Shown here piece after piece: positions 1-4,144 of a DNA stretch of 4,144 nt. Both the position numbers and the translations under genes were made by a program. Position 1 is the first letter of the stretch; every line of letters begins with the position of its first letter. The notes beneath the pieces were generated by a model. The model did no database searches, was not told the DNA's origin, and saw only the letters and a program-made list of their open reading frames with translations. Source of the stretch: a virus (taxonomy: Duplodnaviria; Heunggongvirae; Uroviricota; Caudoviricetes); IMG/VR virus record IMGVR_UViG_2639762987_000008; one strand, given 5' to 3'.

Positions 1-32
1 TTTTGAACGTTTCAGGCTATTTTTCTCGCGTT

Positions 33-69
33 AGGTTCCCGCACAGGTTCCCACGTTTTATGGGAACCC
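33..69. repeat. Short repeat cluster upstream of the integrase start: AGGTTCCC at 33-40 and 45-52 (direct), and GGGAACC at 62-68 forming a 7-bp inverted repeat with GGTTCCC at 46-52 (9-nt spacer). Possible integrase arm-type/att-proximal sites or an operator for int.
   Basis: Read directly from the sequence: ttAGGTTCCCgcacAGGTTCCCacgttttatGGGAACCcg. Function is inferred from position immediately 5' of the int start; no core att site can be defined from this window alone. Confidence 0.35.
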
Positions 70-88
70 GAAATAACGAGGTCGTGTA

Positions 89-1186
89 ATGGCGTACTAT
101 AACATAGAGAAACGACTAAAATCCGATGGCACACCACGCTATCGCTGTAATGTGATTATCAAAGAAAAAGGGGTTATCACTTACAGGGAAAGCAAAACAT
201 TCCCTAAACATGCTCATGCCAAAACATGGGGCACACAGAAAGTGATGGAATTAGATCTACATGGCATTCCATCATCAAATGCTGTTGACGGGCTTACAGT
301 CCGTGACTTACTACGCAAATATTTAAATGACCCAAATGCCGGAGGTAAAGCAGGCCGTACTAAAAGATATGTGCTGGAACTACTTATGGATAGTGACATT
401 TCTGCGATCAGACTATCTGAATTAACAGAAAATGACGTAATAGAACATTGCAGGTTGAGAAACAACGCCGGTGCAGGTCCAGCTACTGTTAGCCACGATG
501 TTAGTTATCTTGGCAGTGTTCTGGATGCAGCCAAACCTGTATACGGAATTAATTACACATCAAACCCAGCAAAAGCCGCTCGTCCATATCTACTTAAACT
601 TGGTTTAATTGGTAAATCAAATCGTCGTAATCGTAGACCAGCATCTGATGAACTAGACATGCTCATTGAAGGCCTTCAACAACGATCTACTCATAAATGC
701 TCAAAAATTCCGTTCGTTGATATCCTCAAATTTTCTGTGTGGTCCTGTATGCGAATCGGAGAAGTATGCCGGTTACGATGGGAAGATCTCGACCAGGAAC
801 AAAAATCTATACTAGTAAGAGACAGGAAAGATCCACGTAAAAAGGAAGGTAACCATATGAAAGTGGCCTTGCTTGGGGAAGCCTGGGATATCGTCCAACG
901 ACAACCCAAAAAATCTGAATTCATTTTTCCATACAACAGCACTTCTGTTACCGCAGGATTTCAGAGGGTAAGAAGCAAATTAGGTATTAAAGATCTGCGA
1001 TACCATGATTTGCGTAGAGAAGGGGCAAGTCGCTTATTTGAGGCTGGTTTTAGTATTGAGGAAGTCGCCCAGGTTACAGGGCATCGTTCATTAAACGTGC
1101 TATGGCAGGTATATACCGAACTGTATCCAAAATCTTTACATAATCGTTTTGAAGAACTCCAAAGGAGCAGAAATAAGACCTCTTGA
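89..1186 (+). CDS. int: Tyrosine site-specific recombinase (phage integrase family), 365 aa
   Basis: Full ORF with GAGG Shine-Dalgarno 7 nt upstream of the ATG. Box I-like segment (MRIGEVCRLRWEDLD), box II HDLR at 1004-1015, GHRS, and the putative catalytic Tyr in WQVYTE at 1112-1114. The N-terminus (YNIEKR...GTPRYR) is consistent with an arm-type DNA-binding domain. Antisense ORFs within it look spurious. Confidence 0.93.
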   Translation: MAYYNIEKRLKSDGTPRYRCNVIIKEKGVITYRESKTFPKHAHAKTWGTQKVMELDLHGIPSSNAVDGLTVRDLLRKYLNDPNAGGKAGRTKRYVLELLMDSDISAIRLSELTENDVIEHCRLRNNAGAGPATVSHDVSYLGSVLDAAKPVYGINYTSNPAKAARPYLLKLGLIGKSNRRNRRPASDELDMLIEGLQQRSTHKCSKIPFVDILKFSVWSCMRIGEVCRLRWEDLDQEQKSILVRDRKDPRKKEGNHMKVALLGEAWDIVQRQPKKSEFIFPYNSTSVTAGFQRVRSKLGIKDLRYHDLRREGASRLFEAGFSIEEVAQVTGHRSLNVLWQVYTELYPKSLHNRFEELQRSRNKTS

Positions 1187-1496: not shown

Positions 1497-1562
1497 TTAA
1501 TACGTAAAATCGATAACGGCTGGAAATCATTCAATACTCGCACTATCGGAAGTTCACCAGCC

Positions 1563-1603
1563 AGCCGCAGTATTCTGCCATGACAAGTTGCTGCGGCTTT
1601 TTA
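1563..1603 (+). terminator. Putative rho-independent terminator for the int-dinI transcription unit: stem AGCCGCAG (1563-1570) / CTGCGGCT (1591-1598) followed by TTTTTAT
   Basis: 8-bp GC-rich inverted repeat followed by a T-run on the + strand. The loop is long (20 nt), so stability is uncertain. It sits between the convergent dinI-like gene and the 3' end of the - strand operon (stop at 1607-1609). No comparable T-run follows the hairpin on the - strand. Confidence 0.45.
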
Positions 1604-1606
1604 TGT

Positions 1607-1894
1607 TTAACGGATAAACAGCCAGACCAGCAGACACGCCATCACCGGCACAGCAAAATCCATCAGGCTTGCTACATCCCACACGCGCGGATCAAAACCG
1701 CCCCACCACGGCATATTCATACGCTTGCCATGTCCGAACATTTCAATCCAGCGATATTCTGCCTGGGTGTGTTCACGCGCAATGAAGAACGTACAACCGG
1801 CTATCGCCCCGTAAGCCCAGTTTCCGGTAAAAAGGCCAATCAGTACCTGTGCAGCCACAGCACAAAGTGCATGAAGGAAAGGTGTTATATCCAT
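1607..1894 (-). CDS. Small polytopic inner-membrane protein (95 aa, about 3 predicted TM helices), function unknown; last gene of the - strand operon
   Basis: Strong RBS (AAGGAGGAG) 4-5 nt upstream of the ATG at 1894, 10 nt after the TAA of the upstream gene. Hydrophobic segments FLHALCAVAAQVLIGLFTG, AYGAIAGCTFFIA and VASLMDFAVPVMACLLVWLFI. No lipobox or clear signal peptide. The overlapping + strand ORF 1580-2056 looks like an antisense artefact. Confidence 0.7.
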   Translation of the reverse strand: MDITPFLHALCAVAAQVLIGLFTGNWAYGAIAGCTFFIAREHTQAEYRWIEMFGHGKRMNMPWWGGFDPRVWDVASLMDFAVPVMACLLVWLFIR

Positions 1895-1904
1895 TACTCC
1901 TCCT

Positions 1905-2609
1905 TTATCCGATATCGCTTCGGGAAGTTGATAACAACTTTAATTCTGACTCAAGTTCATCAACTCTTTCAGTCAGTTTCTGGATATGGTGAATCAGTGG
2001 AACAACCAGACGTTCGTACATTACACCTTCGGCAACAAGGCCATTGCTGGAAATAGCTTCAGGAGCATCATTCTCGTTAGCTGGTCGCCAGTGAACAAAC
2101 TGAGGGGCAATTTCTCCTACTTCCTCGGCAATCAATCCATAGAATCCCCAATCGCGCCTGTCATTTTCGCATTGCGACCTGTACCACACAGGGCGCATCT
2201 TGAAAATGAGATCGGCGTGCTCCGAATCTATCGTCTCTACTGAATGTTTATAGCGGATAGACGATGTGGACCGCAGTACAGACGAAATTGCGGGGTCAGG
2301 ATTAAGATAAAGGTTTGCCGCCGCTGTAGTCGTGCCCAATCCCCACAAATAAAACGCTTCACGACCAGTCAGCGGGTAAAAATCTCCACCATAACGACCA
2401 CTTTCCAGATCGTTCACTTCCACTTTGTTTTTCAGCTTATTATCAACTTCAGTTTTTGTGTATCTGGTGCTGATATCCTGCTTTGCACTGGTCATATCAG
2501 TCTGAAGCGTTGATACTTTTCCGTTAATTGAGGAAATATCTTCCTTGGCTTTACTGACATCTCCCTTTAACGTGGTGATGTCTCCTGGAATTACTGTCGA
2601 TGTAGCCAT
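1905..2609 (-). CDS. Tail-fibre-like protein, 234 aa: N-terminal heptad/coiled-coil-like segment plus C-terminal intramolecular chaperone domain (peptidase S74 / endosialidase-chaperone-like)
   Basis: RBS GAGGGAG upstream of the ATG at 2609. Motif S-S-I-R-Y-K (aa 116-121, nt 2247-2264) matches the S-x-x-R-x-K autocleavage/catalytic Ser-Lys signature (SDERLK in K1F endosialidase). Downstream GFYGLIAEEVGEIAPQFV ... LVVPLIHHIQKLTERVDELESEL resembles the GVIAQEV...LVPLLIEAIKEL...LE core of the chaperone domain, as I recall it from memory. Confidence 0.78.
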   Translation of the reverse strand: MATSTVIPGDITTLKGDVSKAKEDISSINGKVSTLQTDMTSAKQDISTRYTKTEVDNKLKNKVEVNDLESGRYGGDFYPLTGREAFYLWGLGTTTAAANLYLNPDPAISSVLRSTSSIRYKHSVETIDSEHADLIFKMRPVWYRSQCENDRRDWGFYGLIAEEVGEIAPQFVHWRPANENDAPEAISSNGLVAEGVMYERLVVPLIHHIQKLTERVDELESELKLLSTSRSDIG

Positions 2610-2618
2610 TTGTCTCCC

Positions 2619-2900
2619 TCACATCCAGCCACGAAGTTGATGCTCAACAACAATCGCGTATTTATCGAATATTGACGATTTTTTTGCATCATTAATGATG
2701 CGCACGTTTACAAAATATCCGTCTTCCTTAACACATACCGGTTCGCCATCTTCAGTCAGTTCTCCGCTTTCTTTGTACACGTTACCTATCACGTCAATAA
2801 GAATATCATCCTGCATCGACTCGTCATCATAATAGCCAATACTCTCCATAAAGGCCGAAAAGTCGGCCCTGTCTGCAAATTTGAGTGTTAAATCTTTCAT
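2619..2900 (-). CDS. Small acidic hypothetical protein, 93 aa, translationally coupled to the upstream fibre-like gene
   Basis: Its ATG (2900-2898) overlaps the TGA (2899-2897) of the upstream gene as ATGA; a GGGGAGAG RBS-like sequence lies upstream. Strongly Asp/Glu-rich. Followed 9 nt later by the next gene. No recognisable motif. Confidence 0.6.
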   Translation of the reverse strand: MKDLTLKFADRADFSAFMESIGYYDDESMQDDILIDVIGNVYKESGELTEDGEPVCVKEDGYFVNVRIINDAKKSSIFDKYAIVVEHQLRGWM

Positions 2901-4144
2901 TTAATACTCTCCCCCATTTGCGCATCAGTTAATTCTTTATGCCAGATACGCAGATTACGGATATGACCAAAAAGATGATACTCCCCATTAGTGCCCTGCC
3001 CTCCAATTCGCAATACTGCCCGTGGAACAATTGAAGTCCATGTTGTTTTTGCCGCAACAGATAATTCACCATTACATACGGCCTGAACATCTCCATCAGC
3101 GCCACAACGTAAGCCTGAAATGATTTTCCTCTGGGTTGTTGCCACATATTTATTACACCCTCCCATAGAAATAAAAGGAGAACCGGCATCAGAGAAATTA
3201 TTACCACGGAATCCATGCGTGAACAGACCATTTTCCTGATAATCTTTAACATTAAAGATTAATGGTGATTTGCTGGGAGGGATATCCCAGTTTTTATTAA
3301 CTTCAACAAGAGCACTGAATGGTAATCGGTGAATATTGTTTCTTACAGGTATTGTCACCATGTCGCTGGAGCGAGTGCCAGGAGCCCCTTCAGTAATGAT
3401 AAATGACGTCCTGTACGACCCAATCTCCGCCTGAGGCATCGCAATATCTAACGTAGAGCCATTGGGGATAATACTGATTCCAGGCATCGCCAGGATTTCA
3501 AATCTTGAGCTGATTATCATTTCCNNNNNNNNNNNNNNNNNNNNNNNNNNNNNNNNNNNNNNNNCTGCATCTGAATGAAAAACAAACGCACCATTATCAG
3601 ACATTTTTCCGAACCTTGCACGACACCGGGAATTATCACTTTTCGTCAGACACGATATCGTCGTATAAGAACCTGCCGGGCAGGTGTAAGCATCATTCGT
3701 GTTTACAGCAATTGCCTGATATCCTTGTGCTGTCGGATTTTCATTAATAACAGTTATCCTTCCATAGTTAAACCCATTATCACTGTCGAACGACTCAACA
3801 GACACACTACCCGTGTTATTCCATGCTTCTGGTGTATTTGAATTTCTGAAATAGTTTGTTCTCTGTCCTTCAATCAGCAAACCTTCTCGTTCAAATCGCG
3901 GTTCGTCAACTTCAGCAACGGTTAATACACCTGATTTATTAATGTATGTTGCACCTGATGCGCGTTTGAAGCTAACAACCTTATCGGATGGCATTTTAAT
4001 AACATCATCACCTACAGTTATTTGCTTATAACCAGGCGAAAAGCCAGCAAGCATATCCAGTGAATCGTTAAACGGTATCCACACATCAGGCAGTGGCTGT
4101 AAGACATATTTATACGGCTCTGCTGCCTGGCTTGCATACTCTCT
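2897..4144 (-). CDS. Phage tail-fibre / receptor-binding-like protein with C-terminal LamG-type (concanavalin-A-like lectin) domain; 5'-partial, as the reading frame stays open to the window edge at 4144
   Basis: The reading frame is open from 4144 (upstream of the GTG at 4084 there is no stop: ...REYASQAAEPYKYVLQPLPDV-WIPFNDSL...) to the TGA at 2897-2899. The C-terminal signature ...LRIGGQGTNGEYHLFGHIRNLRIWHKELTDAQM (nt about 2915-2977) resembles the LamG_3 family ending (F.G.IDEVRIWNRALS..EI). Frame is maintained across the N run at 3525-3564. Confidence 0.72.
   Translation of the reverse strand, partial: REYASQAAEPYKYVLQPLPDVWIPFNDSLDMLAGFSPGYKQITVGDDVIKMPSDKVVSFKRASGATYINKSGVLTVAEVDEPRFEREGLLIEGQRTNYFRNSNTPEAWNNTGSVSVESFDSDNGFNYGRITVINENPTAQGYQAIAVNTNDAYTCPAGSYTTISCLTKSDNSRCRARFGKMSDNGAFVFHSDAXXXXXXXXXXXXXXEMIISSRFEILAMPGISIIPNGSTLDIAMPQAEIGSYRTSFIITEGAPGTRSSDMVTIPVRNNIHRLPFSALVEVNKNWDIPPSKSPLIFNVKDYQENGLFTHGFRGNNFSDAGSPFISMGGCNKYVATTQRKIISGLRCGADGDVQAVCNGELSVAAKTTWTSIVPRAVLRIGGQGTNGEYHLFGHIRNLRIWHKELTDAQMGESIK
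3525..3564. other. Run of 40 ambiguous bases (N): masked or unresolved sequence inside the fibre-like CDS
   Basis: Seen directly. The flanking reading frame is conserved, so the run probably replaces 40 real bases rather than marking a gap of unknown size. Confidence 0.95.

Follow-up and report, generated by a model that had tools for sequence, protein, structure and literature searches.

A 234-residue phage protein with a Peptidase_S74 domain is probably a self-maturing mini-fibre encoded in a tail-fibre cassette

The window analysed here is a stretch of 4,144 nucleotides (nt) from the IMG/VR virus record IMGVR_UViG_2639762987_000008 (Caudoviricetes). Its minus strand contains an open reading frame (ORF) of 234 amino acids (aa) whose product ends in a Peptidase_S74 domain, and which is the third gene of a cassette that begins with a side-tail-fibre (Stf) gene and continues with a gene for a 93-aa protein. 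We consider it probable that the 234-aa protein is a self-maturing mini-fibre, which its own chaperone domain would fold in cis and which would then be cleaved after residue S116 and docked by its N-terminus onto a partner from the same cassette. This reading is favoured because the gene assorts independently of the fibre gene, because the phage Lambda_2E9 carries the cassette without an S74 gene, because the cleavage dyad, the coiled-coil shaft and the N-terminal motif would be needless for a factor acting in trans, and because the branched fibres of phage DT57C provide a precedent. The gene is an ordinary kind of part that has been labelled inconsistently, and not a new kind of free-standing chaperone. 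An earlier reading of the letters, from here the sequence-only reading, had described a stand-alone chaperone. A separate small S74 ORF does exist, but the description was overstated, as the domain follows a conserved passenger of 116 aa with a putative docking motif, five heptads and the terminal module of long fibres.

The 234-aa protein and its S74 domain

The ORF runs on the minus strand from an ATG start to a stop codon at 1905-1907, and in PHROG its product falls in tail-fibre families. The gene and its parts are as follows, with dN/dS standing for the ratio of non-synonymous to synonymous substitution rates.

1905..2609, minus strand: gene for the 234-aa short tail-fibre protein with a C-terminal Peptidase_S74 domain (from the ORF, Pfam, PHROG, homologues and dN/dS)
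2613..2618, minus strand: Shine-Dalgarno sequence GGGAGA of this gene, read from the sequence, 3 nt before the ATG
2565..2609, minus strand: N-terminal motif M-A-T-x-T-x-I-P-x-D-I-x-x-L-K, residues 1-15, a putative docking segment
2469..2579, minus strand: coiled-coil shaft of five heptads, residues 11-47, a pattern read from the sequence
2262..2462, minus strand: terminal 'tip' of the mature protein, residues 50-116 (YTKTEVDNKL ... GTTTAAANLYLNPDPAISSVLRSTS)
2247..2264, minus strand: predicted autocleavage motif S116-S-I-R-Y-K121 (from the Pfam alignment and its invariance)
1908..2261, minus strand: intramolecular chaperone domain, residues 117-234, with a long C-terminal helix at 198-233 (from the structural model and fold matches)

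The sequence-only reading had placed an S74 domain on a separate ORF with its own ribosome-binding site, two genes downstream of a fibre gene, and had located the cleavage site S-S-I-R-Y-K at nt 2247-2264. All of this held. The gene order is Stf-like gene, 93-aa ORF, 234-aa ORF, and GGGAGA lies inside a 9-nt spacer, directly behind the stop codon of the 93-aa gene. The identical 9-nt spacing was found in the IMG/VR loci surveyed wherever both genes were found. In the search with the Pfam profile hidden Markov model, which that reading had proposed, residues 116-172 matched PF13884 (Peptidase_S74) on profile positions 1-57 of 58 with an E value of 3.8e-6 and 27.5 bits, above the gathering cut-off of 22 bits. 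Orthologues and the alternative third-gene alleles likewise match Peptidase_S74.

The motif S116-S-I-R-Y-K121 occupies positions 1-6 of the S74 profile, with S116 at position 1 and K121 at position 6. Both residues are invariant in two alignments of 39 and 35 relatives, respectively, which extend down to 25-30% identity, and we predict that S116 is the nucleophile, K121 the base and that the chain is cut after S116. The site aligns to the sequence TSGIEYK of DT57C LtfA. The C-terminus of LtfA (8hqz_d, E 8.5e-7) was the only PDB sequence match in single-sequence and profile searches, and the endosialidase and GA-1 domains were reached by fold comparison only.

In the AlphaFold2 monomer model, residues 125-233 reach a predicted local distance difference test (pLDDT) score of ~85-95, including the helix 198-233. 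The best PDB matches of the model in Foldseek were the ICA domain of MyRF (7dc3, E 4e-6, probability 1.0), the GA-1 gp12 chaperone (3gud) and the K1F endosialidase chaperone (3gw6), and 177 S74/ICA proteins matched it in the viral structure library BFVD. Its profile match, dyad and fold all mark the domain as a regular member of the S74/ICA family. With the S74/ICA domains of K1F endosialidase, T5 pb1, GA-1 gp12 and the eukaryotic MyRF it has in common the Pfam domain, the Ser-x4-Lys dyad, the fold with its long terminal helix and the C-terminal position. In contrast to these proteins, whose passengers measure several hundred to >1000 aa, the passenger here has only 116 aa and is encoded by a separate gene behind a fibre gene that lacks an S74 domain. 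Short S74 proteins are not rare, as ~10 among the best 150 cluster representatives measure 180-245 aa and several of the BFVD matches are likewise short (135-273 aa). By analogy with the known behaviour of this domain family, folding in cis followed by cleavage would be expected, and the chaperone domain (117-234) is predicted to be released after folding.

The passenger begins with the 15-residue motif, to which we tentatively assign a docking role. The shaft has I11, L14, V18, A21, I25, I28, V32, L35, M39, A42 and I46 at the heptad a and d positions and was modelled by AlphaFold2 as a single helix over residues 11-47 (pLDDT ~73-81). In the 227-aa alleles exactly one heptad, DVSKAKE, is missing. 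A weak match connects the 234-aa protein to the coiled coil of the P22-type tail needle gp26 (PDB 4lin).

The cassette and its third gene across phage lineages

In every context read, the order was lateral fibre gene, ~92-aa gene, gene for the S74 protein. The contexts belong to four lineages.

Lambdoid phages and prophages: this window, PhiR55_1, IdasGreatGrand and Tritos
Drexlerviridae: KarlJaspers, SECphi27 and orkinos
Queuovirinae: JenP2 gp23-gp25
T5-like phages: Salmonella phage HMD-P4

In the loci read, the S74 third gene was never met without the fibre gene and the ~92-aa gene directly upstream. The arrangement is not unusual; it is that of a widespread three-gene cassette, common in E. 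coli phages, which is already annotated in GenBank under conflicting names. In GenBank and RefSeq, the third-gene protein appears as 'tail fiber domain-containing protein', 'chaperone of endosialidase' and 'putative lateral tail fiber chaperone', and also as a hypothetical protein. Literature searches found no paper characterising the 234-aa protein or the cassette; a preprint presenting an atlas of tail fibres includes a class in which a coiled coil forms the N-terminus and an S74 domain the C-terminus, but this class could not be linked to the 234-aa protein.

The first genes of the cassette differ in their tail-attachment N-termini. PF08400 is present in the lambdoid phages and JenP2, while the first genes of the Drexlerviridae and of HMD-P4 gave no PF08400 match. 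In HMD-P4, the first gene stands at the pb1 position, right after a gene annotated 'collar tail protein for L-shaped tail fiber attachment'. Common to the first genes is a C-terminal module with 39-45% identity, in which a strongly conserved junction (LQPLPDVWIPFNDSL ... EPRFEREGLLIEGQRTNY) is combined with a middle that varies and an end that is LamG-like.

Two allele families occupy the third slot, one of 225-269 aa, to which the gene in this window belongs, and one of 333-348 aa (346 aa in Tritos and PhiR63_1, 348 aa in JenP2, 333 aa in HMD-P4), which is longer and has a different middle. Both end in an S74 domain and both start with M-[AV]-T-x-T-x-I-P-x-D-I-x-x-L-K. Nine positions, M1, T3, T5, I7, P8, D10, I11, L14 and K15, are invariant among six alleles from the four phage lineages. 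Over residues 1-32 the protein is 66% identical to the 346-aa Tritos allele; beyond the shared ends, the two families are ~25% identical. Recombinant N-termini occur among the third-gene alleles. With residues 1-49 as the query, tblastn found cassette orthologues and coiled-coil proteins of Bacillus phages and nothing else. A conserved anchor combined with a variable middle is the usual pattern of a receptor-binding fibre subunit. Because the anchor is kept across four lineages in which the attachment N-termini of the first genes differ and their C-terminal module is common, the docking target is likely to lie inside the cassette.

The rest of the protein resembles the ends of long fibres. From residue 50 to residue 234, its identity to the C-termini of the long single-chain fibres P0185 (735 aa) and P0191 (1243 aa) amounts to 56-59%. 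P0185 and P0186 (958 aa), which have lambda-Stf-type N-termini with PF08400, show 58-59% identity to residues 37/49-234, and the P2-type fibre P0193 matches residues 85-226 at 64%. The tip-plus-chaperone module is therefore the distal end of ordinary single-chain fibres, in which it acts in cis. In P0185 and P0186 the module is fused to the Stf shaft, whereas in this window it appears, by sequence comparison, to have been detached and given its own 49-residue N-terminus with anchor and heptad shaft. A split fibre or a minimal fibre tip had been among the first suggestions for this gene, and both ideas gain support from the shared N-terminal motif and the long-fibre end module.

Across ~70 loci, the third-gene allele was almost independent of the distal Stf allele, and five Stf clusters carried both allele types. 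The pairwise identities of the third gene and of Stf correlated at r = 0.19, compared to 0.8-0.9 between parts of Stf itself. In IdasGreatGrand, a middle of Stf with 35% identity is paired with a third gene of 97% identity. In Lambda_2E9, the C-terminal module of Stf and the 92-aa gene are followed, over a clean junction, by the membrane-protein gene, with no S74 gene between them. In one phage, the S74 gene is hence dispensable.

The Lambda_2E9 locus (L129 3485-6087), together with the related Jouyvirus records H22-H30, represents a natural two-gene form of the cassette. Behind the membrane-protein gene of Lambda_2E9, sitABCD manganese-transporter genes are annotated inside the phage record. 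In the prophage contigs L119 and L121 (4271-4417), only the last ~38 codons of a third gene of the 346-aa type are left. This remnant, located between an 89-aa gene and the membrane-protein gene, is a deletion scar.

Full-length copies of the 234-aa gene with 92-97% identity are present in the isolated lambdoid phages PhiR49_1, IdasGreatGrand and PhiR55_1, and ~45 virulent Drexlerviridae have full-length copies at 57-62% identity. About 720 of the 5426 complete E. coli genomes (~13%) hold at least 80% of window positions 1500-3000. For 22 distinct 234-codon alleles, dN/dS was 0.18 overall; residues 66-116 and the chaperone domain both had 0.14, and residues 1-65 had 0.29. All three regions are under purifying selection. 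A scan of genome contigs returned only the Escherichia locus and three contamination-like fragments, a result that says little on the spread outside Escherichia.

These data bear on the possibility that the gene no longer functions and is what remains of the 3' end of a longer, disrupted fibre gene. The sequence-only reading had named this as a finding that would speak against its own interpretation. Residues 50-234 do resemble the C-terminus of a long fibre, and frameshifted (orkinos) or deleted (L119, L121) copies exist in some phages. However, in the loci surveyed the full length, the start codon, the Shine-Dalgarno sequence and the 9-nt spacing are conserved, the gene is present in viable temperate and virulent phages, even its N-terminal part evolves under constraint, and the unique N-terminal 49 aa are common to the other alleles at the third slot. 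Conservation and dN/dS effectively refute a pseudogene remnant, which we regard as extremely improbable.

As compared to SECphi27 (L005 5995-6702), the orthologue in orkinos (L088 3501-4239) is broken in two by a single additional C, which lies in a C5 run at the codons for F-Y-P-L-T. Matches in two pieces were also found in four other Drexlerviridae, AV105, JLBYU19, JLBYU10 and ityhuna. Several of the Drexlerviridae with split copies were raised on K-12, where lateral fibres are dispensable. Either slippage at a hot spot or an error in sequencing could account for the split in orkinos; no such C run exists in the lambdoid allele.

Mini-fibre or assembly factor

In the proposed mechanism, three chains would associate via their C-terminal Peptidase_S74 domains (residues 117-234). 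This association would set the register for, and fold, two parts of the same chains, the tip (50-116) and the five-heptad coiled coil (11-47). The S116/K121 dyad would then cut after S116 and the chaperone domain would be discarded. The mature trimer of 116-residue chains would dock via MATxTxIPxDIxxLK onto either the Stf-like C-terminal module or the 93-aa protein, and the docked trimer would form a second, exchangeable tip or branch for the side fibre. We infer that the mini-fibre may be incorporated into the virion through one of these partners and that it may have a role in receptor binding.

Two-protein fibres of a comparable design have been described. In the branched lateral fibres of phages DT57C and DT571/2, LtfB is attached to LtfA by way of an N-terminus that is short and conserved, and pfam13884 is present in the two proteins alike (PMC4728585, PMC10713586). 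The LtfA and LtfB proteins, as well as gp14 and gp15 of phiEco32, resemble the arrangement in the window in that a second fibre protein is encoded downstream, ends in pfam13884 and has a short conserved N-terminus thought to dock (PMC4728585, PMC10713586). As in an LtfB-like second subunit, the 234-aa gene adjoins the primary fibre gene and its product has a conserved N-terminus and a variable distal part. In contrast to LtfA and LtfB, the primary fibre in the window ends in a head-spike-fibre/LamG-like region without an S74 domain, a ~92-aa gene intervenes, and the second protein is far smaller.

Several observations weigh against a mini-fibre. For a receptor-binding tip, 116 residues of mature protein are very few, and the terminal segment is poorly modelled, with a pLDDT <50 in the AlphaFold2 monomer and no confident structure at residues 65-114. 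Unless the uncharacterised 93-aa protein serves as one, no chaperone belonging to the upstream fibre could be recognised. Annotators (BASEL and other submitters) have named the third-gene product 'putative lateral tail fiber chaperone' in KarlJaspers, PeterMerian and HMD-P4 and 'chaperone of endosialidase' in SECphi27 and Jahat. Moreover, the version of residues 1-5 (MVTKT or MATST) follows the allele of the adjacent 89/93-aa gene and not the third-gene type (loci L093-L121 versus L008-L087). As the genes are only 9-12 nt apart, this tracking may be explained by linkage, while a protein-protein contact is also possible.

An alternative is a trans-acting assembly factor, a role that the sequence-only reading had also considered. 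The protein would then be a chaperone in detached form, by which the LamG-type fibre encoded upstream is trimerised or folded, and would not itself be a functional component of the virion. The GenBank chaperone labels, the small passenger and an upstream fibre without an S74 domain or a Tfa-type partner are all in favour of this role, and the position just behind the fibre gene recalls the tfa gene. The cassette shares with lambda Stf and Tfa the slot (J, lom, stf and small genes before the attachment/integrase end) and the PF08400 N-terminal domain of Stf. It differs from them in lacking any Tfa-type match, in another distal half of Stf and in a small protein with a predicted cis-acting, self-cleaving domain. 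No cassette gene, including those for the 234-aa and 93-aa proteins, matched a Tfa-type (Caudo_TAP) profile in Pfam, PHROG or NCBIfam. The obligatory co-occurrence and co-variation with the fibre tip that would be expected of Tfa-type chaperones (lambda Tfa, Mu gpU, P2 gpG) was not found for the third gene, as its allele does not co-vary with that of Stf, Lambda_2E9 keeps the Stf module and the 92-aa gene without it, and L119 and L121 have only its remnant. A factor acting purely in trans would need neither the invariant cleavage dyad nor the heptad shaft nor an N-terminal motif that is independent of lineage. The allele families share only this motif, so no conserved client surface is apparent, and the identical module works in cis at the ends of long fibres. 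The S74 family is, besides, said to act on its own polypeptide. Independent assortment and the S74-free Lambda_2E9 in particular speak against a role in trans, and we regard it as unlikely.

A related possibility is that the mini-fibre acts as a detachable trimerisation nucleus, maybe together with the 93-aa protein, which would register or stabilise the LamG-type fibre in trans and then be cleaved off or be kept as a cap. The fibre of Lambda_2E9 might in that case be folded by the 92-aa protein alone, or the need for the S74 protein might depend on the allele. If true, a domain of the S74 type, known as an intramolecular chaperone, would here have found a second use in assembly between molecules, but we give this variant a low probability, slightly below that of a plain assembly factor.

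It is also conceivable that the protein forms an independent short fibre or whisker attached directly to the tail or tail tip, and not via the Stf-like or the 93-aa protein. With its own ribosome-binding site, chaperone domain and coiled coil, it could fold autonomously. Yet the N-terminal motif is conserved in four lineages with differing tails and fibre-attachment domains, and in the loci read the gene is always found behind a fibre gene and a ~92-aa gene. Direct attachment therefore appears rather doubtful, if marginally less so than the assembly factor.

A mini-fibre docked within a mobile cassette remains the reading that we prefer. It would permit a consistent annotation of the gene as the exchangeable third member of a cassette in which a primary fibre and its obligatory ~92-aa partner are accompanied by an optional, predicted self-cleaving mini-fibre. 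The gene occurs in many phages of laboratory and therapy collections. The mini-fibre reading points to a compact swap point for engineering the host range of lambda-like, T1-like, T5-like and Queuovirinae particles, at which an anchor of 15-32 aa could be combined with any tip-plus-chaperone module. The general understanding of tail fibres is left unchanged by the 234-aa gene.

Neighbouring genes and genomic setting

The window comes from an E. coli prophage of the lambdoid (mEp460-like) type that is inserted beside dusA, and covers the end with the integrase. Besides the 234-aa gene, it contains the following genes.

2897..4144, minus strand, running off the window: 3' part of the Stf gene, the first cassette gene (phrog_1419, NCBIfam)
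2619..2900, minus strand: 93-aa gene, the second cassette gene (phrog_1361), whose ATG overlaps the Stf stop codon (ATGA)
1607..1894, minus strand: gene for a predicted membrane protein of 95 aa, the fourth gene (phrog_1443), with an AGGAGG Shine-Dalgarno sequence right after the S74 stop codon
1248-1496, plus strand: DinI-like gene
89-1186, plus strand: tyrosine integrase gene

The part of Stf in the window, a tail protein by its phrog_1419 classification, includes the conserved junction as well as a head-spike-fibre domain, and its end is LamG-like. The LamG label that the upstream gene had been given at first does not stand as a Pfam assignment, as Laminin_G_3 scored 16.9 bits in the window (2897-4144) and 21.4 bits in locus L004 (3765-5720), both below the cut-off of 27.6 bits. 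Significant instead was the match to the NCBIfam model GTA_spike_fiber ('phage head spike fiber') at residues 70-160 of the window fragment, with 47.8 bits against a cut-off of 36.

In the genome of MS6198, which is identical to all non-N bases of the window except one up to the N-run, the full Stf ORF of 783 aa is intact and has the lambda Stf N-terminal domain. The full-length N-terminus matches PDB 9e7m, named 'Tail fiber protein'. The run of 40 N bases at 3525-3564 of the window stands for ~105 nt (35 codons), and RefSeq annotates the intact MS6198 ORF as several pseudogene fragments. Both the N-run and the misannotation were probably caused by the repetitive coiled-coil shaft rich in Ala, Ser and Thr.

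The 93-aa protein had no match in Pfam or NCBIfam, and its AlphaFold2 model, based on 17 close homologues, was unusable (pLDDT 48). The corresponding ~92-aa gene was located in four further loci.

L129 (Lambda_2E9), 3791-4069: ~92-aa gene
L004, 5720-5998: ~92-aa gene
L127, 4213-4491: ~92-aa gene
L128, 4716-4991: ~92-aa gene

This gene was never missing from the cassette. It always lies between the fibre and S74 genes and persists in loci that lack the latter. Because it always follows the LamG-type fibre and is retained in Lambda_2E9, the 93-aa protein is a better candidate than the S74 protein for the dedicated assembly factor or adaptor of the LamG-type fibre.

The 95-aa gene is translationally linked to the S74 gene via its AGGAGG sequence. 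It is present in the lambdoid cassettes and was not seen in the Drexlerviridae loci read. We considered it as an allele-specific partner of the third gene and rejected this, as its identity is 94% irrespective of the third-gene allele type that precedes it. A role in lysogenic conversion or exclusion would be a guess.

The four minus-strand genes, i.e. the Stf 3' part and the 93-aa, 234-aa and 95-aa genes, are closely packed. A promoter and terminator scan found no promoter-like site on the minus strand and no terminator-like site between them, and they are therefore read as one late transcription unit. Rfam and repeat scans of the window gave nothing relevant. As the window opens directly after the start of dusA, with the integrase gene divergent from and adjacent to dusA (window 1-1186; 3464-5687 of the MS6198 locus L001), the prophage is placed at the 5' end of dusA. 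Between the dinI-like and membrane-protein genes (~1493-1573 of the window), RefSeq annotates a short 'capsid protein' pseudogene fragment.

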